Below the pieces are notes generated by a model. The model did not search any database and was not told the DNA's origin. It saw nothing but the letters and a program-made list of their open reading frames with translations. The position numbers and the translations under genes were made by a program. Of a stretch of 64,000 nucleotides of DNA, positions 1 through 16,745 are shown piece after piece (the stretch's first letter is position 1; every line of letters begins with the position of its first letter). Source of the stretch: a virus; the IMG/VR virus record IMGVR_UViG_3300033402_000312. One strand, given 5' to 3'.

Positions 1-13
1 ATTAACGCCAGCA

Positions 14-421
14 TTGGCAGATAGTAGAAACTTATCAATGCTTGGGGTGGGGGCTGATAAATACTTGCGTACGCTTCCAAGCCTCAAAACCTACTATATT
101 ACGTGGGACATTGCGGCACAAATGACCAAATTGGTTGGTGTCGTTGATGGGGTAGTGGTTTTTCAAGCCGAGGGCATACCCTATGAATTCAGATCAAAGT
201 CTGGGGGAGAAGTATTGAACGAGGTGCTTTTTGTTCGGAAGATCATGTACGAGATTTTTAGGGACGTGGACACCACGAAAGAGACCTGTATTATGGTTCC
301 CCGCATGAACTCCGTTTTGATCGTAGGTGATGTAGGTGGAGAAAGTTTGAAAAGTAGCTTTGAGAGGTTAAAAGTACAGTATCCCATGCTGAGCCTGACA
401 GAAGGTCCCAGAACTGTTTGA
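14..421 (+). CDS. hypothetical protein
   Basis: 135-aa ORF in a lower-GC stretch next to an HNH endonuclease gene; no recognisable motif. Confidence 0.35.
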   Translation: MADSRNLSMLGVGADKYLRTLPSLKTYYITWDIAAQMTKLVGVVDGVVVFQAEGIPYEFRSKSGGEVLNEVLFVRKIMYEIFRDVDTTKETCIMVPRMNSVLIVGDVGGESLKSSFERLKVQYPMLSLTEGPRTV

Positions 422-481
422 AATTAGATGTATGTGCAAAACCAATAAAAAACTTGACTACGAAACCCATAAATAGATGAG

Positions 482-1306
482 GTGTTTATGGGTAAAGCGT
501 TAGAGTTATCGGGAAAGGTCTTTGGTAAGCTCCTTGTAATTGAGAGGGCTAAAACCCGTCTTGGGTCAAATTGGCAGTGGGTGTGCCGTTGCGAGTGCGG
601 AAAGGAAAAAACGATCTCGGGGTCAAACTTGGTTTCTAGCAACTCTACCAGTTGTGGCTGTTCTCACATTCAGCACGGCCATAGCAAACGGGGTGATGGA
701 GGCAAGAGTCCTGAGTATACTGTATGGCATGGGTTGATTGGAATATGTTACTGCCCCACTGATGAACAGTTCCATAACTATGGAGCTAAGGGAATAAAAG
801 TTTGCACTCGTTGGCGCAACTCGTTCCCTAATTTCCTACAGGATATGGGCGCAAAACCTCTGCACCACACGCTTAGTAGGAAAGACCCCGCAAAAGGGTT
901 TAATCCCGACAACTGCTTTTGGAAGGAAGGATGGTTCAGACCGTTTGAGTCGATGTACCATCGTGCCAAACGAGAGACAGAAGAACGGAAATCCCGTGGA
1001 CACAAATTTGAACTGACCTACAAGGAGTTTTTGGAGTTTACTTGTATAAGCGCCTGCCATTATTGTGGGTTTGATGTTGGTTGGAAAGACTGTGCTAAAG
1101 CCCCTTACAACTTGGATAGGAAAGACAATGAAGGAAATTATACCAAGGACAACTGCGTGGTCTGCTGCTTTGAATGCAACGCCACTAAAGGGTCGCGGTT
1201 CACTTACGAAGAAATGCTCATCATAGGGGCAGCGGTACGAGAAGTAAAACTGGCTAGGAAGGCGAAGTACCCCATGCTACAATTGGTCGAGGGAGTGCGT
1301 GCGTAG
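482..1306 (+). CDS. HNH homing endonuclease
   Basis: C-terminal HNH core CHYCGF...NLDRKDNEGNYTKDNCVVCCFECNATKG; N-terminal CxxC pairs; phage HNH-associated motif YGAKGIKVCTRWRNSF; AT-richer than flanks. Confidence 0.8.
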   Translation: MFMGKALELSGKVFGKLLVIERAKTRLGSNWQWVCRCECGKEKTISGSNLVSSNSTSCGCSHIQHGHSKRGDGGKSPEYTVWHGLIGICYCPTDEQFHNYGAKGIKVCTRWRNSFPNFLQDMGAKPLHHTLSRKDPAKGFNPDNCFWKEGWFRPFESMYHRAKRETEERKSRGHKFELTYKEFLEFTCISACHYCGFDVGWKDCAKAPYNLDRKDNEGNYTKDNCVVCCFECNATKGSRFTYEEMLIIGAAVREVKLARKAKYPMLQLVEGVRA

Positions 1307-1322
1307 GATATGCTGCTGGGGT

Positions 1323-1475
1323 ATGCGTCTCGGTTATATTGACAGGGAAACTGTGCCGTGCGACAAGCCTGCACGATGCCACATCGAATGGTCTGATGGT
1401 ACGGTCTCGTGGTGTTGCGCCGAACACTATGACCTTGTAATGGCGGAACTGGCGCGTTCTAGGGCGAACCGATGA
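1323..1475 (+). CDS. small Cys-rich protein (50 aa), paralog of next ORF
   Basis: ATG 1323, stop TGA 1473-1475 overlapping next ATG (ATGA); shares motif VPC[DG]KPA..I.W......CC/YC..HYD with ORF 1472..1669. Confidence 0.35.
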   Translation: MRLGYIDRETVPCDKPARCHIEWSDGTVSWCCAEHYDLVMAELARSRANR

Positions 1476-1669
1476 GGCACACTTGCCAGTGGCGGGTGGC
1501 GGACGAACAAACCGGACGGGAGGTGCCGTGCGGCAAGCCAGCCGTGGCGCACATCACGTGGCTTGGATCGAAGCCGTACACCTACTATTATTGTGCGCTC
1601 CATTACGACAAGCGCCTCAAGGAAATAGGCGGGCGCAAGGACGTGCTGGAAGCGAGCGGAGTGCGATGA
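1472..1669 (+). CDS. small Cys-rich protein (65 aa)
   Basis: ORF track; paralogous to 1323..1475; stop overlaps start of the flap nuclease (ATGA at 1666). Confidence 0.4.
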   Translation: MRHTCQWRVADEQTGREVPCGKPAVAHITWLGSKPYTYYYCALHYDKRLKEIGGRKDVLEASGVR

Positions 1670-2649
1670 AAAGAGTCTTCCTGCTTGACGTGATGTCGCA
1701 GGTGTACCGCGCCTACCACGCGGCTGCGCATCAGCCCATCCAGATGTCCACCAAGGCCGGTTTCCCCACGGGCGCGACCTACATCTTCGCCAGGATGCTC
1801 AAGCGGCTGTTCGAGGAGCACAAGCCCGAGTACATCATCGCCTGCATGGAGGGCGGCGGAACGACCAACCGCGAGAAGCTGTACCCCGAGTACAAGGCGA
1901 ACCGCAAGGGCGGAACACCGAGCGAGCTTCAGCGCCAGTTCCCGTACATCAACGGTTTGATCGACGCTTACGGCCTGAAGCGCATCGGCGTGGAAGGCTA
2001 CGAGGCGGACGACATCATCGGCACGTTGGCCCGGCAATTCTACGAGAGCGACCTAGAGAACCAGATTTTCATCGTGACAGGCGACAAGGACATGTTCCAG
2101 CTTGTCAACGACCGCACCTTTGTCGTGAACCCGATGAAGGGCATCTTCGCTGATTCCGCCAAGGTAGAGGCGATAGTGGGCGTGCCCCCGGAACGGGTCA
2201 CCGACGTGATGGCGCTGCGTGGCGACTCCGTGGACAATGTTCCAGGCGCTCCGGGCATCGGGGACAAAGGCTCCGTACAGATCATCAGGGAGTTCGGGTC
2301 GCTCATCGCCGCTCTTGACAGGGCCGGCGAAGTGAAGCGCAAGAGCTACCGCGAGTCGCTCCAGAACAATCGTGCGCAGATCGAGCTTAGCTACAAGCTG
2401 GTCACCATCGACCGTGACGCACTTTTTGGCGTAGGCGAGTTGGGCTTCTATGCATTCAGTAGCCCCGACGAGGAGGCGCTGAGGAAAATTTACGTCGAGC
2501 TTGAGTTTGCCTCCCTGCTGGGCAAGGAGTCGCTGGCAGCGGTTGAGGATTTTGCCGAGATCGTGCAGCCTGAGGCACCATCTGTGGTCGATACCCGGAC
2601 TACGATGACCGAGGAGCAGGCGGACAAGCTGATCGACAGCTTGTTCTAG
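1666..2649 (+). CDS. 5'-3' exonuclease / flap endonuclease (Pol I N-terminal-like)
   Basis: Internal ATG at 1666 of ORF 1483..2649 (MKRVFLLD...); motifs EADDIIG, VTGDKD, GDSVDNVPGAPGIGDKG typical of FEN/T5-D15 family. Confidence 0.85.
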   Translation: MKRVFLLDVMSQVYRAYHAAAHQPIQMSTKAGFPTGATYIFARMLKRLFEEHKPEYIIACMEGGGTTNREKLYPEYKANRKGGTPSELQRQFPYINGLIDAYGLKRIGVEGYEADDIIGTLARQFYESDLENQIFIVTGDKDMFQLVNDRTFVVNPMKGIFADSAKVEAIVGVPPERVTDVMALRGDSVDNVPGAPGIGDKGSVQIIREFGSLIAALDRAGEVKRKSYRESLQNNRAQIELSYKLVTIDRDALFGVGELGFYAFSSPDEEALRKIYVELEFASLLGKESLAAVEDFAEIVQPEAPSVVDTRTTMTEEQADKLIDSLF

Positions 2650-2658
2650 GAGGATTTC

Positions 2659-2970
2659 ATGGATTGCAACCGAAGCACTGGACGTACGACAAGGATGTTG
2701 CGAGAGGCTGTTCGTTTGGCCGAGGTCGAGAACAGAGCGGTGTACGTTATAGCGGGCAACAACGAGCAGGCGAGGAGTTTTGCAAATAGGGTCCCTAAAG
2801 GGTTAGGTATTCAGTTCGAGACCGTGCAAACGCTGCCCGAGTTCGATTGGGAAACCCTGAGCCTTCCCGGCGCACATCTGAATTGCGTAGTTTTGGTGGA
2901 CCACTACGCCATAGAATCTAAGTTCGGTCATATTCTTAAGGAACTTCATCGCTACGATGAAACCCGTTGA
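2659..2970 (+). CDS. hypothetical protein
   Basis: 103-aa ORF, RBS-like GGAGGA upstream. Confidence 0.45.
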   Translation: MDCNRSTGRTTRMLREAVRLAEVENRAVYVIAGNNEQARSFANRVPKGLGIQFETVQTLPEFDWETLSLPGAHLNCVVLVDHYAIESKFGHILKELHRYDETR

Positions 2971-3385
2971 CCCAAGCCCGACGCCGTGGGATTTCGGAAC
3001 GTGGGGATTCTACTGCGATGCCTGCGAGAGATTCTTCGATTTGGTCGAGGACGGAAAAGTGCTGACCCACGAGGGCAACACTTGCACCCGTTACCACAGT
3101 TGCGGGGCAGAAGCCCGATACATCGGGTATGACCATTCAAGGACTCTTCGACCCGACGAACCGTGCAGCCACCCCGGCTGCCTGTCGCATGTGAGCCATC
3201 CATGCGAGGGCTGCGGTCGCATCGCCGGGCGGTATAAATACGAACCCTGCACCGGCTGCGCCGACCCGCACACATGGAGTCCACCCGACGAGGAGGGCAT
3301 CAACAAGGGCTACCATCATCGGCTGAGGAGTTTTCACGCTCCGGTTTCTCGCTGGATAAAATGTCTGCATTTTGACGAAAAATAG
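2957..3385 (+). CDS. Cys/His-rich hypothetical protein
   Basis: 142-aa ORF with many CxxC/HxC pairs; overlaps previous stop. Confidence 0.45.
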   Translation: MKPVDPSPTPWDFGTWGFYCDACERFFDLVEDGKVLTHEGNTCTRYHSCGAEARYIGYDHSRTLRPDEPCSHPGCLSHVSHPCEGCGRIAGRYKYEPCTGCADPHTWSPPDEEGINKGYHHRLRSFHAPVSRWIKCLHFDEK

Positions 3386-3388
3386 TTC

Positions 3389-3417
3389 TTGACAGTTTTC
3401 TGGCTACGCAGTATCAT
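3389..3417 (+). promoter_or_regulatory. sigma70-type promoter P1 (TTGACA-17-TATCAT) upstream of tRNA array 1
   Basis: TTGACA 3389-3394, 17-nt spacer, TATCAT 3412-3417; extended -35 region CTTGACAGTTTTCTG shared with promoter at 11099. Confidence 0.7.
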
Positions 3418-3432
3418 CTTAGAGAGTCAACC

Positions 3433-3507
3433 ATGAATCGCCTTGCCCTATCCCTGACCTTGTATAGCCTGCTTAGCGGGCTGCACGGCGGTGCGTTCAT
3501 CGGGTAA
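3433..3507 (+). CDS. putative leader peptide (24 aa, MNRLALSLTLYSLLSGLHGGAFIG) of tRNA array 1
   Basis: ATG ~16 nt downstream of the -10 element; 7 Leu codons using CUU, CUA, CUG, UUG; one UAU (Tyr); UCC/AGC (Ser). Codons match anticodons of downstream tRNAs. Confidence 0.45.
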   Translation: MNRLALSLTLYSLLSGLHGGAFIG

Positions 3508-3535
3508 GACGAGATTCAAGCCCGGATTCGAACAA

Positions 3536-3566
3536 GCCGCCGAGGTCAGGCGGCTTTCGTGTTTTA
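3536..3566 (+). terminator. terminator-like hairpin (candidate attenuator) between leader ORF and tRNA-Tyr
   Basis: GCCGCC-GAGGTCA-GGCGGC followed by TTTCGTGTTTTAT; leader codons 18-21 (ACGGCGGTG) can alternatively pair with the 5' arm. Confidence 0.5.
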
Positions 3567-3578
3567 TGGGCAAAAATC

Positions 3579-3666
3579 GGGGTAGATGGCACAATGGCGT
3601 GCCAGCAGACTGTAAATCTGCCGTCCCTTGCGGACACGGTAGGTCCGATCCCTACCTACCCCACCA
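3579..3666 (+). tRNA. tRNA-Tyr(GTA), class II
   Basis: Acceptor GGGGTAG/CTACCCC+A+CCA; anticodon arm GCAGA-CTGTAAA-TCTGC; long variable arm; T arm GTAGG-TCCGATC-CCTAC. Confidence 0.75.
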
Positions 3667-3684
3667 AGCTTTGGAGCATCAAAC

Positions 3685-3912
3685 ATGCAAGTGGTTCAGA
3701 CGCACCTGGTGAGGAAGACGGAGCACGGAGAAGTCCACACGATATGCTGGCTCGACGTAAAGCCGAACGTGAAGGTTGGCTCCGTGGTGTCCTTGGAAGA
3801 CTCGCCCGGCGAGTGGTGGACTGTGCTGTCCCAAGGCTTCGTGCAGGATTCCTCGCTGATCAACCGGAAATGGGGCCTAGACCTGCCGAAGTCGCAGCGC
3901 CTCGAAAGGTAA
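3685..3912 (+). CDS. hypothetical protein
   Basis: 75-aa ORF with balanced composition directly after tRNA-Tyr; preferred over ORF 3594..4169, which overlaps the tRNA. Confidence 0.4.
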   Translation: MQVVQTHLVRKTEHGEVHTICWLDVKPNVKVGSVVSLEDSPGEWWTVLSQGFVQDSSLINRKWGLDLPKSQRLER

Positions 3913-4170
3913 TCGAATCCGGCAGGGTCACGGAGTGCAGGCACTGCGGCACGAGGCACCCCACGTGGGCGAACGGCACGATTTGTTTCATGGCTTTCTT
4001 CTACATTTGGGAGCGCGACCTGCTCCACATGGCGAAGCAGGACGCAGGATGGAGGTCGGTGGCGCACAAGTTGGGGTTCATGGACGCTAAGATCGATGCG
4101 CCGTGGGCTTTCCCAGATGAAGGACGCTATATAGCGTACAGGCGGATAAAAGACGGTGAGTTTTTGTAAC

Positions 4171-4259
4171 GCGAGCGTGGCGGAATCGGCAGACGCGCAA
4201 CGTTGAGAACGTTGTGGGGTTTTTATCCCGTAGGAGTTCGAGTCTCCTCGTTCGCACCA
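4171..4259 (+). tRNA. tRNA-Leu(GAG), class II
   Basis: Acceptor GCGAGCG/CGTTCGC+A+CCA; D arm TGGCGGAATCGGCAGACGC; anticodon loop TTGAGAA; long variable arm; T loop GGAGTTCGAGTCTCC. Confidence 0.8.
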
Positions 4260-4335
4260 GATTTAAGTTGGGGCGGTGTTTGGCACGGATGCTTTATACA
4301 AGAGTAAACCCCGTGCCGTTGATGTCCCCCACTTT

Positions 4336-4422
4336 GCGCGGGTGGTGGAATTGGCAGACACGCGGGCCTCAGAAGCCCGTGGGGTAAAACCCGTGGAGGT
4401 TCAAATCCTCTTCCGCGCACCA
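4336..4422 (+). tRNA. tRNA-Leu(CAG), class II
   Basis: GCGCGGG...CCGCGC+A+CCA; anticodon arm CGGGC-CTCAGAA-GCCCG; variable arm hairpin; T loop GAGGTTCAAATCCTC. Confidence 0.8.
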
Positions 4423-4457
4423 AGATTCGGGCGGCTTCTGGGTCGCTCCCAGAAGTA

Positions 4458-4548
4458 GGAGATGTGGCGGAATTGGCAGACGCAGCGCCCTTGAACGGCT
4501 CTGAGTCTATTAAGACGGCTCGTGCGGGTTCGACTCCCGCCGTCTCCG
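4458..4548 (+). tRNA. tRNA-Ser(TGA), class II, Leu-type D arm, G73, no encoded CCA
   Basis: Acceptor GGAGATG/CGTCTCC+G; D arm identical to Leu genes (TGGCGGAATTGGCAGACGC); anticodon loop CTTGAAC with one C-T mismatch in the stem; long variable arm; T arm GCGGG-TTCGACT-CCCGC. Confidence 0.6.
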
Positions 4549-4571
4549 TCGCCCGGACGTATTAAGGTGAC

Positions 4572-4940
4572 ATGGCCAAGTTCGAAGATCATTGCCGCGA
4601 CTGCGAGCGCATCCTTGGGGGCAGGCGCGAGGATGTGAACCGCTGGATGGACGAGCTTTTTCGCCAGCATGGCCCAAGGCACCGCAAGTTTCGGCATTGC
4701 TGGCACGGCGTGTGCGAGGCAAGGAAGATTTTCGGAGCGGAGGGCGCGAAAGCGGCAATCATCCACATCGTTCGGGATTGCGGCGCTGTGCCCGACCAGC
4801 GCGTCTACGACGAAACGCAGCTTGGCATCGTGCTCGCGCCGGAGCATGCGACAGGCAGCGCGGACAACGCGGCGTTCGAAAAGTTTAGGATTGCCGTGGA
4901 AGAGGACTTTAAGAAAGCGGTTACGAAGGGGTGTTTGTAA
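4572..4940 (+). CDS. hypothetical protein
   Basis: 122-aa ORF between tRNA genes; protein-like composition; RBS-like AAGGTG upstream. Confidence 0.55.
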   Translation: MAKFEDHCRDCERILGGRREDVNRWMDELFRQHGPRHRKFRHCWHGVCEARKIFGAEGAKAAIIHIVRDCGAVPDQRVYDETQLGIVLAPEHATGSADNAAFEKFRIAVEEDFKKAVTKGCL

Positions 4941-5060
4941 GTGATCTGGAGAAAGATCAACGAATTTTGTTTTCGTCGTTATGGGACGCACCAGCAAGAC
5001 TGCTGGCCCATATACGCCCGGATAGTTTATGCGGTACTGACCTATCTGGTGTAGCAAAAT

Positions 5061-5147
5061 GCGGCTATGGCGGAACTGGCAGACGCACTAGCTTGAGGTG
5101 CTAGCGGTAGCGATACCGTGGAGGTTCGAGTCCTCTTAGCCGCACCA
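5061..5147 (+). tRNA. tRNA-Leu(GAG) second copy, class II
   Basis: GCGGCTA...TAGCCGC+A+CCA; anticodon arm CTAGC-TTGAGGT-GCTAG; T loop GAGGTTCGAGTCCTC. Confidence 0.75.
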
Positions 5148-5155
5148 AATTTGGG

Positions 5156-5228
5156 GGAATAGCATTGTGGAATGCGCCCCGGTTCCAAACCGGGGAGAAG
5201 GCGGTCCGACTCCGCTTCTATTTCGGCA
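5156..5228 (+). tRNA. tRNA-Trp(CCA)-like candidate, possibly degenerate
   Basis: Clean anticodon stem-loop CCCGG-TTCCAAA-CCGGG resembling E. coli tRNA-Trp; T arm GGCGG-TCCGACT-CCGCT; acceptor pairing imperfect. Confidence 0.3.
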
Positions 5229-5430
5229 GTTGCGTTGTTCCCGAGCTTGGCGTCCAAAAGCTGTCATGGAAAGACAGCCTGCCCGGCTTCGCGGTGAGCA
5301 GAGGGCGATACTTCCCCCACAAGTGAGGAAGCTCCGGCATGTTGCTGGTTCGACTCCAGCGCTGTAGCGAAGGGCAAGCCGTGTAGACGGCGCGATTCGC
5401 GGTCGAGACATGCCGACTTCCGCTAGATTT

Positions 5431-5515
5431 GCGACCGTGGCGGAACTGGCAGACGCGCATGGCTTAGAACCATGTGGAGCAGTCCGTGGGGGTTCGACTC
5501 CCTCCGGTCGCACCA
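5431..5515 (+). tRNA. tRNA-Leu(TAG), class II
   Basis: GCGACCG...CGGTCGC+A+CCA; anticodon arm CATGG-CTTAGAA-CCATG; T loop GGGGGTTCGACTCCCTC. Confidence 0.8.
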
Positions 5516-5520
5516 AGATT

Positions 5521-5606
5521 GCCGGGCTGGCGGAATTGGCAGACGCACTCGCCTCAAAAGCGAGCGGTTAACAGCCATGAGGGTTCGACTCCCTCGCCCG
5601 GTACCA
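5521..5606 (+). tRNA. tRNA-Leu(CAA), class II
   Basis: GCCGGGC...GCCCGGT+A+CCA; anticodon arm CTCGC-CTCAAAA-GCGAG; T loop GAGGGTTCGACTCCCTC. Confidence 0.8.
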
Positions 5607-5659
5607 AAATTAAAAGTTGGCATCATCTTTTTGTGGTAGTATTCGGGTAGGAGACTGCC

Positions 5660-5983
5660 ATGAAACCCACGAAAGTTTTAGCTTCAATCCTTCTGATCCT
5701 CTTCCTTGCTGCGCTGGCGGCGGCAGCCCAGAACTATACGGCGTTCTCGGTTGTGGGCGTGCAGCAGACCGCGCCCAATGTCTACACGGCGACGGTCAAT
5801 ACTGTTGTCAAGAACCCGACGAACACGATCCCCCCGGACGGCACCGTGCTGACCATCGCCACAGCGAACTGCACCCACGTGCCCGGCAGGAGCGGCGAGA
5901 ACGCCATCGTGTCGAACGGGCCGCTGGGGCGTGCTCTGTTGTTCGCGAACGGGCCGTCCTGCGCGATCACGGGCATAAAGTAA
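5660..5983 (+). CDS. secreted protein (signal peptide)
   Basis: RBS AGGAG 9 nt upstream; N-terminal MKPTKVLASILLILFLAALAAAAQ signal peptide; Thr/Asn/Val-rich mature part. Confidence 0.65.
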   Translation: MKPTKVLASILLILFLAALAAAAQNYTAFSVVGVQQTAPNVYTATVNTVVKNPTNTIPPDGTVLTIATANCTHVPGRSGENAIVSNGPLGRALLFANGPSCAITGIK

Positions 5984-6267
5984 GCTTGTAAACCCCCCTG
6001 TTTCAAGGTCTTACGGCTGGACGAAACTGCATCCCTGCCTGTATACTGTTGGTATGAGGACACCACAAAGACGAACCGTTGCGGGTGGAATTCCTCCGTC
6101 ACGGTGAGGGTCGTTGTCGAAGTCGGCAGCATGCCCGGCGACTTTTATAAGCCGGGGAGCGTGCGGACAGTCAACGCCTGTAACCTGTACAAGCGCCGTG
6201 CCAGCCCCGAGCGGAAATTCGCTCGAAAATAGTCCATCGTCGGGCACGGAAAGGGCATCAAATAGGT

Positions 6268-6606
6268 ATGGAAAAGCATCTCTACGAAATCCTTGTCCCC
6301 ACCGTGCGGAACGACGGCAGACCGATACACACGAGATTCCACAGGATTTGGGACAGGAAGGTCGAGGCGATCAGCAACGGGTTGACCATCCTCACGCCCG
6401 GCAAGGGCACGTGGGTCCACGAAGGCACGTCCATTCGCGAGCGCATGATCCCCGTGCGGATCATGTGCACGCGGGAGCAGATCGACCAGATCATCGACCT
6501 GACGCTTGAGTATTATTACGACCAACTCGCAGTCATGGCTTACAGGGTGAGCGACGAGATAATCCTGAAGCACCGGGCGGCGGCGAAAGGCGGGAAGAAT
6601 GTCTAG
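6268..6606 (+). CDS. hypothetical protein
   Basis: 112-aa ORF, protein-like composition. Confidence 0.55.
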   Translation: MEKHLYEILVPTVRNDGRPIHTRFHRIWDRKVEAISNGLTILTPGKGTWVHEGTSIRERMIPVRIMCTREQIDQIIDLTLEYYYDQLAVMAYRVSDEIILKHRAAAKGGKNV

Positions 6607-6713
6607 GCGGGGGGAGGGTCTCGGCATCTTCGGGGCGCTTGCAGTCGTGCTCATCCTCTTGGGCTTGATCGCGCTGCTTGCGAACTGCCTCGGCATTTTG
6701 CCCAGCCACTGAT

Positions 6714-6920
6714 ATGTCCAAATCTCCGAAGGCTAAACAACCTGAGTACAATCATTGGGACGAATTTGTGAAGTTCGTCAAGGCGCAAGCCATCCTGTCC
6801 AAAGAATTCCGGGAACAACTCATCCTCAAAATGGGCGGGGGGATGCAAGACGCCCATGAGCGCGGTATCCTAGAGGGAAAGCGTCGGGCTAAATTGGAAC
6901 TCGAAAGAAAAACCAAATGA
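6714..6920 (+). CDS. hypothetical small protein
   Basis: Internal ATG 6714 of ORF 6678..6920; stop overlaps next start (ATGA). Confidence 0.35.
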   Translation: MSKSPKAKQPEYNHWDEFVKFVKAQAILSKEFREQLILKMGGGMQDAHERGILEGKRRAKLELERKTK

Positions 6921-7264: not shown

Positions 7265-7324
7265 CCCTCTTCAGTTCCCTAGCTAAACGGCCGTAATTCC
7301 AAAATCCACCCCCTCGGGGTATTA

Positions 7325-9395: not shown

Positions 9396-9401
9396 AGTCA
9401 A

Positions 9402-9746: not shown

Positions 9747-9747
9747 C

Positions 9748-10665: not shown

Positions 10666-11102
10666 AAGATATTTGGGTCTGTAAAATCGGCGAAACGGAA
10701 AGAGACAATCTTCCAGATGGGGCTGATTTTCCCATGAGGTTGGTTGTTGCCGAGGCTTATCGACAAATTACGGGACACGATCCAGATTTTTTCTGGTTGG
10801 GGCGGGGAATTGACCGAAGCCGAGCGAATTGTAGCAAACGAGAAGCGGGGAAAGCCATGAGCGACGTCGGCATGACGGAGTTCGAGAGGTTCGCCATGGA
10901 TCACAACGAGCATGCGCACTGCGCTGGGTGCGGGGGCTGCATGCTCGACCCGCGCATCAAGGAATTGCAGGCAGCCCCCGTTTGGTGTATGGGCTGCGTC
11001 AAGGCCATCCATGCCAAGATGCCTGTCGGTGCCCCGCGCCCGTGGGCAGGCGGGGTGATGTTCTGCAACCCCGGAAATTTCTTCTTGAAAATAACCTCTT
11101 GA
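10662..11102 (+). CDS. hypothetical protein
   Basis: 146-aa ORF, ATGA overlap with upstream ORF; Cys/His cluster HCAGCGGCM. Confidence 0.5.
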   Translation: MKDIWVCKIGETERDNLPDGADFPMRLVVAEAYRQITGHDPDFFWLGRGIDRSRANCSKREAGKAMSDVGMTEFERFAMDHNEHAHCAGCGGCMLDPRIKELQAAPVWCMGCVKAIHAKMPVGAPRPWAGGVMFCNPGNFFLKITS

Positions 11103-11127
11103 CAGTTTTCTGTTTTCCTGGTACTAT
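11099..11127 (+). promoter_or_regulatory. sigma70-type promoter P2 (TTGACA-17-TACTAT) upstream of tRNA array 2
   Basis: TTGACA 11099-11104, 17-nt spacer, TACTAT 11122-11127; same extended motif CTTGACAGTTTTCTG as P1. Confidence 0.7.
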
Positions 11128-11174
11128 ATGTGAGTACATGCGGCGGTCTTTGCCGCTATAGGTGCTGCCTTCAA

Positions 11175-11246
11175 ATGAACACGATGCGACCATTTCCGGG
11201 TTTTCGACCGTGCATGCCCAGCATGCGCGGGGTCGCAGGTCTCTGA
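11175..11246 (+). CDS. putative leader peptide (23 aa, MNTMRPFPGFRPCMPSMRGVAGL) of tRNA array 2
   Basis: 4 Pro codons (CCA, CCG, CCG, CCC) and 4 AUG matching downstream Pro(UGG), Pro(CGG) x2, Pro(GGG) and CAU tRNAs; 2 UUU; weak RBS. Confidence 0.4.
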   Translation: MNTMRPFPGFRPCMPSMRGVAGL

Positions 11247-11292
11247 CTGACGGAGACAGCCCCGCGCTGCACGGCGTCGGGGCTTTGTGGGC
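11226..11292 (+). terminator. alternative-hairpin region: CGCGGGG / AGCCCCGCG / CGGGGCT + TTTGTGGG (candidate attenuator)
   Basis: AGCCCCGCG (11258-11266) can pair either with upstream CGCGGGG (11226-11232, inside leader ORF) or with downstream CGGGGCT (11278-11284), which is followed by a T-rich tract. Confidence 0.4.
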
Positions 11293-11359: not shown

Positions 11360-11447
11360 CGGAGCGTAGGCGGGTAAATGGAAGCCCTCCTGCTTTGGAA
11401 GCAGGTGCCTGCGGGCCTTGGGAGTTCGAGTCTCCTCGCTCCGACCA
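11360..11447 (+). tRNA. class II-type tRNA with UGG anticodon and tRNA-Pro acceptor identity (C1:G72, A73)
   Basis: CGGAGCG...CGCTCCG+A+CCA; anticodon arm CCTGC-TTTGGAA-GCAGG; variable-arm hairpin GCC-TGCG-GGC; T arm GGAG-TTCGAGT-CTCC; 88 nt. Confidence 0.55.
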
Positions 11448-11472
11448 AGTTTCATTCGCGAATAGCGAATGT

Positions 11473-11551
11473 CAGGGCGTAGCTCAGTCTGGTTTAGAGT
11501 ACTCGCGTCGGAAGCGAGGGGTCGTGAGTTCGAATCTCACCGCCCTGACCA
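11473..11551 (+). tRNA. tRNA-Pro(CGG)-like (A37)
   Basis: CAGGGCG...CGCCCTG+A+CCA (C1:G72, A73); D arm GCTC-AGTCTGGTTTA-GAGT; anticodon arm CTCGC-GTCGGAA-GCGAG; T arm GTGAG-TTCGAAT-CTCAC. Confidence 0.65.
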
Positions 11552-11563
11552 GTATTATGATAA

Positions 11564-11902
11564 ATGATTGAATCAGAACGAGTTTTTCGTCGTGCCCGGC
11601 AACGAAAGTGGTATCGTGAACGTGGACGTGCCAAACAGATTAAGAAGGCAACCGCCCGAAAGAAGCGGATCATTGCTTGGTATCGAGCGTACAAAAGTAC
11701 GTTGAAATGCTCTCGGTGCTCGGAGAGGCGTTCAGCCGCCTTGGATCACCATCACCGGGACCCAAAAATGAAGGAGTTTAACATTGCCTTTGCTGTAGGG
11801 AATGGTTACTCCATTAAACGGTTGCTAAAAGAAATCGCGAAATGCGATGTCTTGTGCGCTAATTGCCACAGAGTTGAAGAGGCTGAAAGGCGCAAAGTTT
11901 AG
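11564..11902 (+). CDS. HNH homing endonuclease (inside tRNA array)
   Basis: HNH core LDHHHRDPKMKEFN...CDVLCANCHR; basic N-terminus; inserted between two tRNA-Pro genes. Confidence 0.75.
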   Translation: MIESERVFRRARQRKWYRERGRAKQIKKATARKKRIIAWYRAYKSTLKCSRCSERRSAALDHHHRDPKMKEFNIAFAVGNGYSIKRLLKEIAKCDVLCANCHRVEEAERRKV

Positions 11903-11907
11903 GTTTT

Positions 11908-11984
11908 CGGGTTGTAGCGCAGCCTGGTAGCGCGTACGCTTGGGGTGCGTAAGGTCGCGGGTCCGAATCCCGCCAACCCGACCA
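11908..11984 (+). tRNA. tRNA-Pro(GGG)
   Basis: CGGGTTG TAGCGCAGCCTGGTAGCGC...CAACCCG+A+CCA; anticodon arm TACGC-TTGGGGT-GCGTA; matches E. coli proL architecture. Confidence 0.8.
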
Positions 11985-12112
11985 AGTTCAGGCTGAAGTA
12001 GGTACATCGGTAACTACAGGCAGCCGAGAGACAGTCCGAGTCCCGCTGAGCGTCCCGCCGAGCCTACGCGCACCAATCGGTCAAGCGTACAGGGACGAGC
12101 AGCAGCGAGTTT

Positions 12113-12184
12113 TGCGGGGAAGTGAATAGGATCACGAGAGCCTCATAAGCTCTAAATCCGGTTCGAGTCCGGCGTCCGCAACCA
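12113..12184 (+). tRNA. tRNA-Met(CAT)-like, short D loop, imperfect T stem
   Basis: TGCGGGG...GTCCGCA+A+CCA; D arm GTGA-ATAGGA-TCAC; anticodon arm AGAGC-CTCATAA-GCTCT; T region CCGG-TTCGAGT-CCGG; 72 nt. Confidence 0.45.
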
Positions 12185-12333
12185 ATTTGAGGGCTAAATA
12201 TCGGTTGCCCGAGTGCGGAACATGGTTTCGAAAGTGTAAAAAGCAGATGCGCTTAGCCATGGCGGCTCCTAGTGCGTAAAGGGCGGACACGCCCGAGGCA
12301 AAACTGCCTCGCATACCGAAGAGCCACAATTTT

Positions 12334-12936
12334 ATGGAACAGTACCCAGAGATACCCGGCGCGAAGAAGGCTCCCCTCGGGGAGAGGTGCATCGCGTTCT
12401 ACAAGTACGACGGCTCCAACCTCCGGTGGGAATGGAGCAAGAAGCGCGGCTGGCACAAGTTCGGCACGCGGACGGAGCTTTTCGCCCCGGAGCACCCGCT
12501 GTGGGGGCAGGCACTCCCCCTTTGGCGCGGGATCGCGCACGACGTCAAGGATCGCATTTACGCGAGCGACTGGCGGTTCCGCAACATACAGCGGATCACG
12601 GCGTTCACCGAGTTCTTCGGGCCTTCGAGCTTCGCCGGGACGCATGACGAGAAGGAGCCGAAGGAGCTTAGGCTCATCGACGTCTGGCTGTACAAGCACG
12701 GCAGGATGCCGCCCCGGTGGTTCGTGGACACGTTCAGCGACGCGTCGTACGCGGCGCAGGTGGTCTACGAGGGCAACCTGAGCACGGAGTTCATCCGCGA
12801 CGTGCGGGCGGGGAAGTACCCGGTGTGGGAAGGCGTCGTGGCGAAGGGCGACGACTGGATGGCGAAGATCAAGACCGAGGCGTACATGCTGAAGCTCAAG
12901 GAGGTCTTCGGCCTGGACTGGGAAGGGTTCGCGTAA
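12334..12936 (+). CDS. minimal ATP-dependent RNA/DNA ligase-like nucleotidyltransferase (Rnl2-type NTase domain only)
   Basis: Motif I KYDGSN (K24), motif III FTEFFG, motif IV WEGVVAKGD, motif V AKIKTEAY; ~200 aa, no C-terminal domain. Confidence 0.65.
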   Translation: MEQYPEIPGAKKAPLGERCIAFYKYDGSNLRWEWSKKRGWHKFGTRTELFAPEHPLWGQALPLWRGIAHDVKDRIYASDWRFRNIQRITAFTEFFGPSSFAGTHDEKEPKELRLIDVWLYKHGRMPPRWFVDTFSDASYAAQVVYEGNLSTEFIRDVRAGKYPVWEGVVAKGDDWMAKIKTEAYMLKLKEVFGLDWEGFA

Positions 12937-12940
12937 TAAA

Positions 12941-13017
12941 CGGGGCGTAGCGCAGCCTGGTAGCGCGTCTGCTTCGGGAGCAGAAGGCCGTTGGTTCGAA
13001 TCCAATCGCCCCGACCA
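12941..13017 (+). tRNA. tRNA-Pro(CGG)
   Basis: CGGGGCG TAGCGCAGCCTGGTAGCGC...CGCCCCG+A+CCA; anticodon arm TCTGC-TTCGGGA-GCAGA, identical loop to E. coli proK. Confidence 0.85.
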
Positions 13018-13041
13018 ATATTATGCATAGCGAGGTGCATT

Positions 13042-13702
13042 ATGATTCTGGAAATAAGAGCGGCGGAAGGCGGCGAGGACGCGAGGCTCCTCGTCGAGGA
13101 CCAGACGACGATCTACGCCCGCGTGGCGTCGCGGAGGGGTCTTTGAGTTCGAGGTCGTGGAGCAGCGCCAGGGCTTCGCGGTCCTGAGGATCACGGGGCC
13201 GGGCGCGAAGGAGGCGTTCGCGAATGAGTCGGGAGGTCATCGCTGGCAGAGGGTCCCGCCGACTGAGAAGCGCGGCAGGGTGCAGACCTCGACGGTCACC
13301 GTCGCGGTGTTCGACGAACCCGAGGCTTCGGAGTTCAAGGTCAGAGACGCCGACCTCGCATGGGAGACCATGCGGAGCGGGGGCAAGGGCGGGCAGAACG
13401 TGAACAAGGTCGAGACTGCCGTCCGGCTGACCCACAGGCCGACCGGGCTGACAGTGCGGTGCGAGTCCGAGCGGTCGCAGTCGCGCAACAGGCAGACAGC
13501 GCTCGCCACCCTGACCGCCCGGCTGGCTGCGGCGCGGCGGGAGCAGCAGCAGGACGCGCAGGCGACCGACCGGAGGCGGCAGATCGGCACGGGGCAGCGC
13601 GGGGACAAGCGCCGGACGATCCGCGAAAGGGACGGGGTCGTGACAGACCACGTCCTGAACCGGAAATGGCGATACGCGGACTATGTGCGCGGGCTGTGGT
13701 AA
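13042..13702 (+). CDS. N-terminally truncated class I peptide-chain release factor homolog (domains 2-4) with programmed +1 frameshift at 13141-13146
   Basis: Frame 1: ATG 13042 (RBS GAGGTG), [34 protein letters not shown] then CTT TGA; frame 2 continues [13 protein letters not shown]...[28 protein letters not shown]...[38 protein letters not shown] (PxT-like PPT and GGQ motifs, RF1-like); GGAGG 3 nt upstream of CUU UGA as in prfB. Confidence 0.7.
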
Positions 13703-13712
13703 GATAGCTTAT

Positions 13713-13788
13713 GGCGGTGTAGCTCAGTTGGAGAGCGCGGGTCTCATAAACCCGAGGTCGCTGGTTCGTTCCCCAGCCACCGCTACCA
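13713..13788 (+). tRNA. tRNA with CAT anticodon (Met elongator or Ile2/lysidine type)
   Basis: GGCGGTG TAGCTCAGTTGGAGAGC...CACCGCT+A+CCA; anticodon arm CGGGT-CTCATAA-ACCCG; T arm GGTCGCTGGTTCGTTCCCCAGC resembles ileX. Confidence 0.75.
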
Positions 13789-13804
13789 AATTTGGGGAAG
13801 AAAT

Positions 13805-13966
13805 ATGTCTCATCCTGTAGTTTTTGATTGTCCACACTGTGGTCGGAGTTTAGAAGCATCATCAGAAACAGTAGTTCGCTGTCCACATTGTAGGGTAGCC
13901 ATCGATATTCTGACAGACGGAGTGAAGATAGACCCATTTGCAGAAAAATTTCATATTGGCGAGTGA
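13805..13966 (+). CDS. small zinc-ribbon protein (53 aa)
   Basis: ATG 13805; two CPHC pairs (FDCPHCGRS...VRCPHCRVA); start of an AT-rich island containing the next HNH gene. Confidence 0.4.
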   Translation: MSHPVVFDCPHCGRSLEASSETVVRCPHCRVAIDILTDGVKIDPFAEKFHIGE

Positions 13967-13999
13967 GGTCTAGTACTACAGTCAGTGTGACTAAGTTAC

Positions 14000-14548
14000 T
14001 TGACTTTCAAGAAGCATAAGTGGAGAATACCACTTATGCGACAAACAGTTTCAGTCACATGCAATTTTTGTGGCAATCAACTAGATAAACTTGCGAAGTC
14101 CGTAAAATGGGCGAGAGCTAACGGGCAAAAAAATTTTTACTGTAACATGGTCTGTATGCAGTCTGGCCGAACCTTAGGTCGGGTAAAACCGGGTACGGCT
14201 TTGCGTAGTCTTTTATGTCGGTATAAACAGACTGCAAGACGGAGAAAAGTTTCGTTTACGTTAACGGACACTGAATTTGGGAGCTTGGTTACCCAGTCAT
14301 GCTACTATTGCGGCGATGCTCCAGCACAAGTAGCAAGAGCCAAATCTGGCGAGACCTTAAAGTATAACGGGATAGACCGGGTTAATAACTTGTTCGGGTA
14401 TTCTACTGACAACAGCGTGAGTTGTTGCGGTACATGCAATCGTTGGAAATCATCCATGTCATCGGAGGATTTCTTGGCTCAAATCAGGAAAATTTTTGAG
14501 AGGACAACTATGGTCACCAACCTTAGCAAGACCGCCCATACGGCGTAA
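14000..14548 (+). CDS. HNH homing endonuclease
   Basis: CYYCGDAP...YNGIDRVNNLFGYSTDNSVSCCGTCNRWKS HNH core; N-terminal CxxC; low-GC island. Confidence 0.8.
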   Translation: MTFKKHKWRIPLMRQTVSVTCNFCGNQLDKLAKSVKWARANGQKNFYCNMVCMQSGRTLGRVKPGTALRSLLCRYKQTARRRKVSFTLTDTEFGSLVTQSCYYCGDAPAQVARAKSGETLKYNGIDRVNNLFGYSTDNSVSCCGTCNRWKSSMSSEDFLAQIRKIFERTTMVTNLSKTAHTA

Positions 14549-14577
14549 CGTGTGGGCCGGTCACAAGGAGAACCAAA

Positions 14578-15240
14578 ATGTTGTCAAGGACTAAAAAGGC
14601 GGCTGCGCTGTACTTCGAGCCGCTCAAGAAACTGCTGGCTGCTGTGCGGTCGGTGGTGCAGTTCCGTGTGAAGCGCTGGCATGTCGCCATGCGCGGGTGG
14701 AATGAGAAAGACGTTCGCGTCCTGATCTGCCTTGAAGACTCGATCTGGTACTGGGTCGTGTTGGAGTGGCTGTTCTGGGACGTCCAGACGCATGTCTGCC
14801 ACTGCATGGACTGCGTCAAGCTCCCGAAGTTCGTCCGCAACTGGAAGCGGCACTGGGACAAGGACGATCCCGAGTACTTCGCCACGTGGGAGGACTGGTA
14901 CGGCGACAGCTTTCACTCGATCTGGCACTGCCATGTGTGCGATCCCTTGCTTCAGTGGGTGTGGAGGCACAAGGATTTCCACAAGGCGTGGCCGCAGTGG
15001 GAACTGACGTTCGACGAAGCCCGCAAGACCTTCGCGCACGACCCGAAAATCTACGAGTGGGCTGAGAAGGAACTTGCGGAGCACAAGCAGTACGACGCCG
15101 AGAAGCTCGACGAGATTCGCAAGTCCTACAAGGCTGGCGGCCTGACCCGCGAGCAGGCGCTTGAAAAGCTGGGGTGGCACTTCGGGGGCGAGAATCTTGA
15201 AATTCTGCTTGACGAAAAAGAAGGACTAACAGTATCTTAA
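14578..15240 (+). CDS. hypothetical Trp/His/Cys-rich protein
   Basis: RBS AAGGAG 8 nt upstream; 220-aa ORF. Confidence 0.6.
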   Translation: MLSRTKKAAALYFEPLKKLLAAVRSVVQFRVKRWHVAMRGWNEKDVRVLICLEDSIWYWVVLEWLFWDVQTHVCHCMDCVKLPKFVRNWKRHWDKDDPEYFATWEDWYGDSFHSIWHCHVCDPLLQWVWRHKDFHKAWPQWELTFDEARKTFAHDPKIYEWAEKELAEHKQYDAEKLDEIRKSYKAGGLTREQALEKLGWHFGGENLEILLDEKEGLTVS

Positions 15241-15485
15241 TAGATGCACGTGGGACCCCGACCGACCTGACGAGGCAGCTTGTACGAGAGGTGGCGGGCA
15301 GTGCGCATCAACCTGGCACCGAGGCTCATAACGACTGAACAGCCGGAGCCGATGACAACGGGGTCCCACAACTTTTTCAGTCCCAGCCCTGCCTGACTGG
15401 GTGGTTGCGGGGGAGATGTTCCAGCCCATACGATGACTGGATGGCGGGGACGCAATGTTTGGCGGAGACGACTAAATTTTTCTGA

Positions 15486-15562
15486 TGCGGGGTGGAGCAG
15501 TCTGGTAGCTCGCAACGCTCATAACGTTGAGGTCGCCGGTTCAAATCCGGCCCCCGCTTCCA
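15486..15562 (+). tRNA. initiator-like tRNA-Met(CAT)
   Basis: Body nearly identical to E. coli tRNA-fMet (TGGAGCAGTCTGGTAGCTC, GGTCGCCGGTTCAAATCCGGCCCCCGC); unpaired 1:72 (T/T); CCA encoded; anticodon stem CAACG/CGTTG lacks the three G:C pairs. Confidence 0.75.
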
Positions 15563-15578
15563 GTTTATAGCCCGAGGG

Positions 15579-15818
15579 GTGGAACCTGAGACGGCAATTC
15601 CGCCCCTCCATTCTTTGAAAGGGCGCATGGGACAGACTTCGTCAAGCTCCAAAACGACAGCCACCGAACTGGCGAAGATGCTGATGGAGCACCCCGACTG
15701 GGAAGTCGAGGTCGAGGGTTACGCTTGGTTCGGGATGAACGAGCCTACGAAGTATACGTCGTCGCCCGAAGTGGACGAACTGCCCGAGCAGAAAAAGTTT
15801 CTCATCTACACAGTCTGA
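15579..15818 (+). CDS. hypothetical small protein (start may be 15627)
   Basis: 79-aa ORF directly after tRNA; acidic C-terminal half. Confidence 0.35.
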   Translation: MEPETAIPPLHSLKGRMGQTSSSSKTTATELAKMLMEHPDWEVEVEGYAWFGMNEPTKYTSSPEVDELPEQKKFLIYTV

Positions 15819-16090
15819 GTTCAACGCCCGTAGGCTTTGAGCCGAGATGCAGAAGGGCTGGCAGAGCCATACGACCTGATGCAGGACGGGAAAGCTCTGC
15901 AAGTAATTTGTGAAGAGATTCTGCAAATGAGGCGGCATCTCATTTGCAGGGGAGCCGGAGCAAATGCGCGAGGACATGCCTCACCAGCGCGTTCAGACGG
16001 ACACCGGACCGGGTGAAAGCCGTGGCAAGACTGTTTGAGTCTCCGGCGCAAGCTTCGCAGCGGTGTAATGTACGGATACTTCACATAAAC

Positions 16091-16119
16091 CAGTAGGTTG
16101 TGGGTTCGAATCCCACCTT
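16091..16119 (+). tRNA. tRNA 3' fragment (variable loop + T arm + acceptor 3' strand)
   Basis: GGTTGTGGGTTCGAATCCCACCTTCCGAG has perfect T arm GTGGG-TTCGAAT-CCCAC but no matching 5' half upstream. Confidence 0.4.
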
Positions 16120-16669
16120 CCGAGAAATCGGATGTAGCTCAACTGGAAGAGCAACAGGTCAGAAAAATTCCGTGCAGCTTTTTGTTCCCTGCGATTTCAA
16201 GACTGATTTTTTCGTGCCGAGCCGCCCGTGCGTGGCCACGCTAAGGCGCGGGAGAATCCATAAGGTGGCTGTTGTACAGGCCCGCTCGTACGAAGGGCGA
16301 TCTTTCTAGCTAGAGGTTCGTACGAGCGAATACATTTCGGTGCTTCAAGCCGTTCTCGGACGTAAACCGAGTGGAGCGGAACCTCGCACGTTTCCCGGTT
16401 CGTCAAAAACCGGGTGGATTTCTATGACGAAAGCGACCGCGTGCAGCCTCGTTGCTTATGCCTCGGCGTTCGCTGCTGGCGCGACTTTCTGGTACGGAAC
16501 CTTGGCGTCGAAGCCCAAGTTCTATTATCTCGCGGTAGCGTTCTTCTTGTTTGCCGCGAAGTTCCGTTTTCTGGCTTCCGCGCATCTAAAAGGAAAGATT
16601 CAATGAAGCTGACGTCCCAACTCGACTCGTTTAGCGGCCCCTCCGGGGGCCTGCGGTAACGTGTGTCAA

Positions 16670-16745
16670 GGGGACGTAGCTGATGCGGTCTTAGCGCCTG
16701 CCTGAAGAGCAGGAGATGTTGGTTCGACTCCGACCGTCCCCGCCA
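16670..16745 (+). tRNA. tRNA-Phe(GAA)
   Basis: GGGGACG...CGTCCCC+G+CCA; anticodon arm CCTGC-CTGAAGA-GCAGG; T arm GTTGG-TTCGACT-CCGAC. Confidence 0.8.

Follow-up and report, generated by a model that had tools for sequence, protein, structure and literature searches.

A predicted ribosome-mediated attenuator preceding a transfer RNA gene array in an uncultured phage

What is the function of a strong promoter, a very short open reading frame (ORF) and a terminator hairpin when they are placed, in this order, immediately in front of an array of transfer RNA (tRNA) genes? The question is raised by a locus of the virus record IMGVR_UViG_3300033402_000312, which was analysed as a single stretch of 64,000 nucleotides (nt), referred to here as the window; the coordinates of the locus are positions in this window. 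The ORF, termed leader 1, is rich in leucine and tyrosine codons and precedes genes for leucine and tyrosine tRNAs. The first-pass annotation of this DNA had compared the arrangement with the trp/leu/his-type leader-peptide attenuators, here attached to tRNA genes. The whole case for leader attenuation is computational, and it indicates that the region is probably a ribosome-mediated transcription attenuator placed before a tRNA gene array. The proposed architecture is supported by the anatomy of the locus, by its conservation, by covariation between alternative RNA helices and by folding of the RNA in the presence of a modelled ribosome.

The coordinates of the features are given in Table 1. 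The sigma-70-type promoter was present as first annotated, matching the consensus at 11 of 12 positions, and is the highest-scoring promoter-like site within positions 1–18000 of the window. A 14-nt word at this promoter, CTTGACAGTTTTCT, has exactly two copies in the window, at 3388 and 11098, one for each of the two promoters described in this study. The leader ORF was found with exactly the codons that had been claimed for it, comprising seven leucine codons (CTT twice, CTA once, CTG three times and TTG once) and a single TAT codon for tyrosine. The GC hairpin that had been placed about 30 nt past the stop codon was likewise confirmed, the gap between stop codon and stem being 26 nt. The hairpin has the sequence AAGCCGCC-GAGGTCA-GGCGGCTT, spans 3534–3556 and is followed by TCGTGTTTTAT; six of the eight stem pairs are G-C, and the site is the first listed among the terminator-like sites of the scan. 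The predicted terminator ends 11 nt upstream of the first gene of the array, a tRNA-Tyr(GTA) for which ARAGORN gave a start at 3579. The array obtained with ARAGORN agrees with the earlier statement that the leucine codons of the leader cover each leucine anticodon class behind it (GAG, UAG, CAG and CAA). The description of the genes as a Leu/Tyr/Ser array was correct for the tRNAs it named and incomplete in that a tRNA-Trp(CCA) is also present.

Table 1. Features of the two leader regions of the window and of a third leader class; positions are those of the window unless a contig is named.
Feature	Position	Strand	Details or basis
Sigma-70-type promoter, TTGACA-17-TATCAT	3389..3417	+	−35 element 3389–3394, −10 element 3412–3417
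Shine-Dalgarno-like GAGAG, weak	3422..3426	+	6 nt upstream of leader ATG; read from sequence
Leader ORF, 24 codons, MNRLALSLTLYSLLSGLHGGAFIG	3433..3507	+	16 nt past the −10 element
Putative regulatory codon block CTT, CTA, CTG, TTG, TAT, CTG, CTT	3442..3474	+	codons 4–14
ORF-internal hairpin AGCCUGC-uua-GCGGGCU	3466..3482	+	folding; helix 1 of covariation test
Predicted antiterminator, three stacked helices	3486..3542	+	folding and alignment A2
Predicted intrinsic terminator, stem of 8 base pairs and 7-nt loop, then UCGUGUUUUAU	3534..3567	+	
Putatively controlled array: Tyr(GTA), Leu(GAG), Leu(CAG), Ser(TGA), Leu(GAG), Trp(CCA), Leu(TAG), Leu(CAA), with small ORFs	3579..5606	+	ARAGORN, Rfam, ORF list
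Second promoter, TTGACA-17-TACTAT	11099..11127	+	upstream TG; shares the word CTTGACAGTTTTCT
Second leader ORF, MNTMRPFPGFRPCMPSMRGVAGL	11175..11246	+	ATG x4, CCA, CCG x2, CCC, TTT x2
Predicted trp-like alternative helices of leader 2	11205..11289	+	alignment A3, 18 sequences
Second array: Pro(TGG), Pro(CGG), Pro(GGG), Met, Pro(CGG), Met, Met, Phe(GAA), with interspersed ORFs	11360..16745	+	
Third leader class, ORF MNKIHTNSNAVCTEHGTVAAAAAVGDTVSSDGWDG, with promoter and canonical terminator	L143 16202–16425 (array to about 20200)		

The codon content of leader 1 was compared with a background table derived from 9,535 codons in 14 long ORFs of the window and with all 370 ATG-initiated ORFs of 18–40 codons found in its six frames. 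Leucine and tyrosine account for 8 of the 23 codons of leader 1, compared to 11.2% of the codons in the long ORFs (P = 0.0025), and this content ranks first among the 370 short ORFs. The long ORFs use CTA for 3.5% of their leucine codons and favour CTC over CTT, TTC over TTT and TAC over TAT. Against this usage leader 1 contains CTA, two CTT codons and TAT, and no CTC codon. The probability that seven leucine codons drawn from the phage usage would cover CTA, CTT, TTG and CTG while avoiding both CTC and TTA was 0.014.

Comparison of the region with GenBank phages using BLAST gave matches at the level of the tRNAs only, and there is therefore no close cultured relative. Relatives were instead identified through neighbouring proteins and conserved DNA patterns, which led to uncultured phage contigs of up to 463 kilobases (kb). 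These gave nine distinct leader-1 units, located in the window and in contigs L009, L001, L142, L144, L010, L179, L180 and L184, among which the identity of the flanking FEN-family protein falls to 61%. A scan of viral contigs with a 15-nt promoter word returned more than 100 chance matches, and only in the window and L001 was the word followed by tRNAs. The leader frame is open in all nine versions and has a length of 24–29 codons, and the promoter, the ATG, the terminator and the T tract are conserved, with both the −35 and −10 elements kept in the homologues (alignment A1). CTA, CTG, TTG, CTT and a tyrosine codon (TAT or TAC) occur in nine of nine leaders, and Leu-TAG, Leu-CAG, Leu-CAA, Leu-GAG and Tyr-GTA in nine of nine arrays, while the remaining residues of the peptide vary freely. 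The first-pass annotation had regarded a lack of codon-anticodon correspondence in related phages as the mark of a coincidence; the correspondence was found in every one of the nine leader/array pairs.

One element of the proposed matching did not hold. The leader codon UCC had been linked to tRNA-Ser(UGA), for which it is no standard cognate, and the serine codons do not track the serine tRNAs across the relatives. This candidate correspondence was rejected, because serine codons are frequent in every version of leader 1 yet a serine tRNA is found in the array of the window only.

An accidental arrangement, in which the tRNA array is preceded by chance by a random ORF and by the terminator of an upstream gene, gains some plausibility from the abundance of short ORFs in the window. 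It is nevertheless extremely improbable, since the ORF holds the first rank for leucine and tyrosine, the terminator lies downstream and not upstream of a strong promoter, the unit is conserved in relatives as divergent as those above, and six other matched leaders, described below, parallel leader 1.

The RNA of leader 1 folds much better than shuffled versions of the same sequence (z = −3.9). In the minimum-energy fold the 5′ arm of the terminator is paired with codons 18–20 of the ORF and not with its own 3′ arm. The pairing of leader codons 18–21 with this arm, as proposed at first pass, was therefore real in the model and consists of CGGCGGU (3486–3492) with GCCGCCG (3536–3542). It forms the outer helix of a predicted antiterminator, which continues with a middle helix of GUUC (3495–3498) with GAAC (3530–3533) and an apical helix of UCGGGU (3500–3505) with GCCCGG (3520–3525). 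This structure overlaps the 3′ part of the ORF and is mutually exclusive with the terminator, and the leader stop codon (3505–3507) spans the end of the 5′ strand of the apical helix and the start of the loop. In the L184 homologue of leader 1 (1459–1542) the stop codon is located 9 nt farther into the apical loop.

The conservation of these helices was assessed in alignment A2, in which the nine leader-1 sequences were aligned with MAFFT, using controls where the pairing partners were slid by 1–3 columns. In the antiterminator 79% of the alignment cells are able to pair, compared to at most 46% in the slid controls, and eight pairs are changed on both sides, a number reached in 6 of 500 shuffles. 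Compensatory changes include CGGCGG/CCGCCG to CAGCGG/CCGCUG in L001 and CGGGU/GCCCG to CGAGU/ACUCG in L010. The stem of the terminator hardly varies and is 97% paired, with hairpin energies of −14 to −21 kcal/mol across the homologues and a T-rich tail in all nine. The folding comparison suggested with the first annotation thus yielded alternative antiterminator and terminator structures that are conserved with compensatory changes. A further hairpin, contained within the ORF at 3466–3482, shows compensatory changes in five of its six outer pairs, the L001 version being AGCUAC-cuuc-GUAGCU, and is possibly a pause hairpin for RNA polymerase.

The C-terminus of the leader peptide, GGVF(I/N)G, is also conserved as RNA, since the corresponding GGCGGUGUGUUCAxCGGGUAA forms the 5′ half of the three-tier stem. 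This bears on the explanation that leader 1 is an ordinary gene for a hydrophobic micropeptide with its own terminator, the array being transcribed by leaky read-through and the codon match being a by-product of a leucine-rich peptide. Leu/Ser-rich peptides of 24 residues are common as small membrane proteins, the C-terminal motif is conserved and the equivalent ORF of the cultured phage phiCbK is annotated as a hypothetical protein. However, it is the nucleotides that are conserved at the C-terminus, where the antiterminator helices lie, and the other residues are free to change provided that the Leu/Tyr codon types persist. The second leader, the third leader and the leader of phage XM05, each described below, are not hydrophobic and match their own arrays, and a preference for rare or wobble-read codons is not explained by a peptide function. 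A micropeptide gene is accordingly judged highly improbable.

The effect of translation on the switch was modelled by ribosome-masked folding, in which the nascent RNA up to the terminator loop was folded with a ribosome-sized stretch forced to remain single-stranded. With the A site at positions up to the last codon of the Leu/Tyr cluster, the terminator arm is sequestered with a probability of about 0.85–0.96 in most homologues; in L010 the sequestration is lower, at 0.42–0.83 over the cluster. With the ribosome two to three codons past the cluster, sequestration falls to 0.05–0.4 in eight of nine homologues. The regulatory codons therefore end just where the modelled ribosome starts to block the antiterminator.

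We infer that the leader ORF is translated, that the hairpin terminates transcription and that the switch operates in the following direction. Host RNA polymerase would initiate at the promoter and a ribosome would translate the 24-codon leader. When all the sampled charged leucine and tyrosine tRNAs are plentiful, the ribosome would pass codon 14 towards the stop codon and cover the 5′ strand of the antiterminator (3486–3505), so that the terminator could fold and transcription would stop 11 nt before tRNA-Tyr. If any one of the sampled species, reading CUA, CUG, UUG, CUU or UAU, became scarce, the ribosome would stall within codons 4–14, the antiterminator would form first and sequester the 5′ arm of the terminator, and the polymerase would enter the Tyr/Leu tRNA genes. 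The new tRNAs would relieve the stall and close a negative feedback loop. The presence of one codon per isoacceptor suggests that the quantity monitored is the tRNA species and not the amino acid. Because the sensor would read charged tRNA, it could not distinguish low abundance of a tRNA from low charging. The idea that attack by anticodon nucleases is the trigger is speculation.

A second leader was identified in the same window, in front of an array of proline, methionine and phenylalanine tRNA genes that is conserved upstream of a DNA polymerase gene in related contigs. Met, Pro and Phe account for 9 of the 22 codons of leader 2 (P = 3e-4), which ranks second among the 370 short ORFs. A pattern scan gave 23 distinct homologues of leader 2, and in the 22 with enough sequence a proline tRNA follows, at a distance of 35–135 nt in 21 cases and of about 640 nt in L193. 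The same pattern scanned against 185,579 representative genomes gave chance matches only and therefore no host clue. The two leaders differ reciprocally in their use of wobble-read codons: in counts pooled from related sequences, which are descriptive only, the nine versions of leader 1 contain 13 CTT and 2 CTC codons, with 9 TTC and no TTT, whereas the versions of leader 2 contain 27 TTT and 10 TTC codons, with 13 CTC and 1 CTT. These reciprocal counts indicate that the wobble-read codon is favoured only for amino acids whose tRNAs are encoded downstream.

The leader frame also bears on whether these RNAs are translated. An untranslated structured 5′ leader or small RNA, carrying an incidental frame and either causing partial, constitutive termination or stabilising the RNA at its 5′ end, would agree with the strong fold of leader 1, with the weak Shine-Dalgarno sequence of the window and with the prediction that the untranslated form adopts the antiterminator. 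This is very unlikely, however, as the frame is open in all nine leader-1 and all 23 leader-2 sequences despite insertions and deletions, the position of the stop codon is constant, at or within the apical hairpin loop, the amino-acid enrichment is specific to each array, and chance matches to the leader-2 pattern show neither such an ORF nor tRNAs.

The predicted RNA structure of leader 2 contains four segments, at 11205–11217 (segment 1), 11221–11235 (segment 2), 11260–11267 (segment 3) and 11274–11282 (segment 4), the last followed by a weak tail, CUUUGUG. A separate hairpin surrounds the stop codon at 11239–11257. In alignment A3 (n = 18) the mutually exclusive helices 1:2, 2:3 and 3:4 are 87%, 98.6% and 93% paired, and leader 2 thereby has a true 1:2 pairing, unlike leader 1. 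Column 101 of the alignment, located in segment 3, covaries both with column 56 (GC in 9 sequences, AU in 5 and GU in 4) and with column 112 (CG in 9, UA in 6 and UG in 1). As read from the alignment, such three-way covariation is what marks a switch of the trp type.

For leader 2 the output is less certain, because the U tract is weak or absent and because in a short form of the leader segment 4 lies within tRNA-Pro. In this short form, observed in L139 (3203–3240), L148, L150 and L184 (6661–6700), tRNA-Pro(TGG) itself supplies the 3′ strand of hairpin 3:4, in the form of its 5′ acceptor strand, and the switch might therefore gate the folding or processing of the tRNA and not termination. In the window a conserved helix of 7 base pairs, GUCGGGG/CCCCGAC, is located at 11274–11334; this helix 4:5 has compensatory changes and is similar to an acceptor stem. 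Inside it lies a hairpin whose loop, GAAAUUCCCAAC, is conserved, and helix 4:5 and hairpin 3:4 compete for segment 4. The region is possibly what is left of a tRNA-like element, or else a signal for processing. It was also considered whether helix 4:5 and the U/G-rich tract downstream of it form the real terminator of leader 2, which would invert the logic of the switch. The first gene of the second array, a tRNA-Pro(TGG) at 11360–11447, is 88 nt long and has an extra arm; the Rfam tRNA model matches its core only, with 24.5 bits, below the gathering score.

These features of leader 2 raise the alternative that the RNA switches are genuine and have an output other than termination. They could govern how the tRNA precursor folds or is processed, by way of access for RNase P or RNase E, or their polarity could be reversed, with read-through promoted by efficient translation. 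The short form, the acceptor-stem-like helix 4:5 and the many leader-2 homologues that have no U tract after hairpin 3:4 are in favour of this, as is the first phiCbK leader, in which the 5′ arm of the terminator lies inside the ORF. Leader 1, on the other hand, has a canonical hairpin and T tract in nine of nine versions, immediately upstream of the first gene, and the geometry of the masked folds fits read-through induced by stalling. An output of this kind is considered unlikely.

Matched leaders were also found outside this group of loci. The leader of the related contig L143 precedes an array of Val, Ala, Cys, Asp, Cys, Gly, Glu, Ala, Gly, Ala, Gly, Val, Glu, Gly and Ala tRNAs and is accordingly an Ala/Val/Gly/Asp/Glu/Cys leader, which uses all four GCN codons and three of the GTN codons. 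The cultured Caulobacter phage phiCbK (NC_019405.1, record 48043–51502) contains three units of TTGACA promoter, short ORF and annotated terminator, the terminators being directly before groups of tRNA genes. The clearest of these is gp335, MFALSHNSLSTKAASPASLSLAPLATATKPSTKPTTSASHSTDHL, located upstream of two Pro, two Lys, three Leu and two Ser tRNA genes; 23 of its 44 residues are Pro, Lys, Leu or Ser (P = 1e-5), and its codons match each anticodon. A leader with the core QFVRQIQVVRNI precedes Phe, Val, Ile and Gln tRNAs, and a Glu/Asp leader has weak enrichment and a terminator arm that lies inside the ORF. All three phiCbK leaders are kept in a second cultured Caulobacter phage, CcrRogue. 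In the cultured Erythrobacter phage XM05 an unannotated ORF of 26 codons, MFTQTALHLLTQTPLYCQWQYSCSSL, was found on the reverse strand at the right genome end (reverse complement 117–268), followed by an array of Ser, three Leu, Thr, His, two Gln, Ser, Cys and Trp tRNAs and by a hairpin after the leader that has no U tract. Twenty of its 25 residues, including two Cys, the Trp and the His, are drawn from the seven amino acids of the array (P = 8e-7). When seven leaders and seven arrays were permuted, the true pairing ranked first of 5040, and six of the seven leaders had their highest enrichment with their own array. The annotation of T5 has no promoter-leader-terminator layout before its tRNAs, and the design is therefore not universal.

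Several observations weigh against attenuation as described here. Both the window and L009 have a weak Shine-Dalgarno sequence, although stronger tracts (GGAG, GAGGA and AAGGA) occupy the equivalent position in several homologues. The Ser-TGA and Trp-CCA genes of the first array are not represented by matched leader codons. In the masked folds a ribosome on the stop codon itself leaves an intermediate sequestration of 0.09–0.65, and L144 shows no switch. Leader 1 has no anti-antiterminator equivalent to helix 1:2, as the hairpin at 3466–3482 does not overlap the antiterminator strand, and because of this the untranslated leader 1 RNA is predicted to read through. Hairpin 3:4 of leader 2 is without a clear U tract in many relatives and is followed by a weak one in the window, and the first and third phiCbK leaders are not significantly enriched when taken on their own. 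The leader-1 homologue of L184 contains TTA, and no Leu-TAA gene was seen in its 6.8-kb locus. Finally, the homologues share descent, so that the covariation and the codon counts are not independent events. A related candidate was dropped on the same L184 evidence: L001 alone encodes Leu-TAA and its leader has TTA, a covariation of TTA with Leu-TAA that appeared clean in L001 and is contradicted by L184.

The anatomy, its conservation, the covariation of the alternative helices and the matching of codons with anticodons across independent leaders are shown by the sequences themselves. With the points above taken into account, ribosome-mediated attenuation remains the probable function of the leader 1 region. 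The chances are somewhat better than even for the wider proposal, in which large phages organise their tRNA genes as regulons behind 'codon-sampler' leaders, each containing a codon for most or all of the downstream species, often a rare or wobble-read one. Such a leader would act as an OR gate, where a shortage of any single sampled species induces transcription of all the genes in the array until the new tRNAs turn it off, and the triggers could be decay of host tRNAs, a mismatch in codon usage or anticodon nucleases. The design would recur in uncultured jumbo phages, phiCbK, CcrRogue and XM05, and some variants may act on folding of the acceptor stem of the first tRNA.

Other features of the two arrays were also recorded. 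The roughly 200 nt that separate tRNA-Trp from tRNA-Leu(TAG), at 5225–5430, contain a T-arm-like GGTTCGACTCC and gave low-confidence tRNA calls from ARAGORN at relaxed thresholds and no Rfam match; this spacer may be a degenerate tRNA. Odd tRNA calls occur at similar sites in relatives, with '???-AG' in L144 and 'Phe-AAA' in L179. Between the tRNA genes lie ORFs at 4572–4940, 11564–11902 and 12334–12936, which include a DUF6915 protein (Pfam), a Cys/His-rich protein that is HNH-like by eye and has no Pfam match at E ≤ 0.01, and a 200-residue protein, also without a Pfam match, whose K-Y-D-G motif recalls the active sites of nucleotidyl-transferases or ligases. A release-factor-like protein of 181 residues, with an RF-1 domain, a PCRF fragment and a GGQ motif, is encoded inside the second tRNA array at 13157–13702. 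Among the neighbouring ORFs searched with Pfam, only the DUF6915 and RF-1/PCRF proteins were recognised.

Phage tRNAs are commonly viewed either as constitutive aids to codon usage or as decoys that protect against tRNA-targeting defences. If the mechanism is correct, a phage would gauge decoding capacity separately for each tRNA species and produce tRNAs when they are needed. Leader-peptide attenuation would then reach from enzyme operons to tRNA genes, with a new leader design in which every isoacceptor is sampled by one codon and a single leader covers several amino acids. The grouping of phage tRNA genes into arrays of a given composition would then find an explanation, and many 'hypothetical' mini-ORFs beside tRNA arrays could be annotated by a simple rule. 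The proposal is directly testable, as phiCbK has the same layout and infects the model bacterium Caulobacter, and such leaders could serve synthetic biology as compact sensors of individual tRNA species.

The first-pass annotation had stated that attenuation of tRNA genes is not a described mechanism, and this agrees with the searches made here. No description of leader-peptide attenuation of tRNA genes was found in the searched full-text literature, a scope that leaves out most subscription journals, so that an older description is possible, and there is no Rfam family for it. The word stems 'attenuat' and 'leader' are absent from the phiCbK genome paper, which states that Rfam found no RNA elements besides tRNAs. 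In the window, Rfam searches with cmscan (E ≤ 1) of 2500–6500 and 10900–11600 matched only the tRNA-clan families RF00005 and RF01852, with no match to Leu_leader, Trp_leader, His_leader, Thr_leader or a riboswitch. An attenuator-like leader before the Escherichia coli tRNA-Phe genes pheV and pheU was considered and rejected on the K-12 sequence, where the upstream gene and the tRNA are separated by only about 100 nt, too little for a leader.

Compared with other phages, the arrays resemble the T4 and T5 clusters in having tRNA genes interspersed with small ORFs, as those clusters are with small ORFs and homing endonucleases, and in having host-type promoters. In the T5 annotation, unlike here, the promoters are directly before the tRNAs with no terminator between, and we know of no codon-matched leader described for T4 or T5. 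The T-box riboswitches (RF00230) also couple the status of a specific tRNA to the choice between antiterminator and terminator in front of translation-related genes. However, a T-box binds the uncharged tRNA directly through its specifier codon and T-box motif and needs no ORF, whereas the phage readout would proceed through a translating ribosome; no RF00230 match at E ≤ 1 and no T-box motif was found at the leader locus.

A closer parallel in function is pheM-pheST of E. coli, where a leader-peptide attenuator of phenylalanyl-tRNA synthetase responds to the supply of charged tRNA. As in that system, the phage leaders would regulate a component of the decoding apparatus, although pheM-pheST controls a synthetase and senses a single amino acid. 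In structure the phage regions resemble the trpL, leuL, hisL, pheL, thrL and ilvL attenuators, having a promoter-proximal short ORF enriched in regulatory codons, a terminator before the first gene and a mutually exclusive antiterminator that uses the 5′ arm of the terminator, with leader 2 containing even the full set of 1:2, 2:3 and 3:4 helices. They differ from these amino-acid operon attenuators in being encoded by phages and in having tRNA genes and small ORFs as targets, in place of genes for biosynthesis or aminoacyl-tRNA synthetases. Their codons are spread out, one per isoacceptor and including rare and wobble-read ones, and are not runs for a single amino acid, and one leader would monitor several amino acids (Leu and Tyr; Met, Pro and Phe; seven in XM05). 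Leader 1 further departs from the full trp layout in having no 1:2 anti-antiterminator. The structural elements are those of the attenuator class and the target is not an enzyme operon, so that the system would be a classic bacterial control principle on a new target, the tRNA genes.

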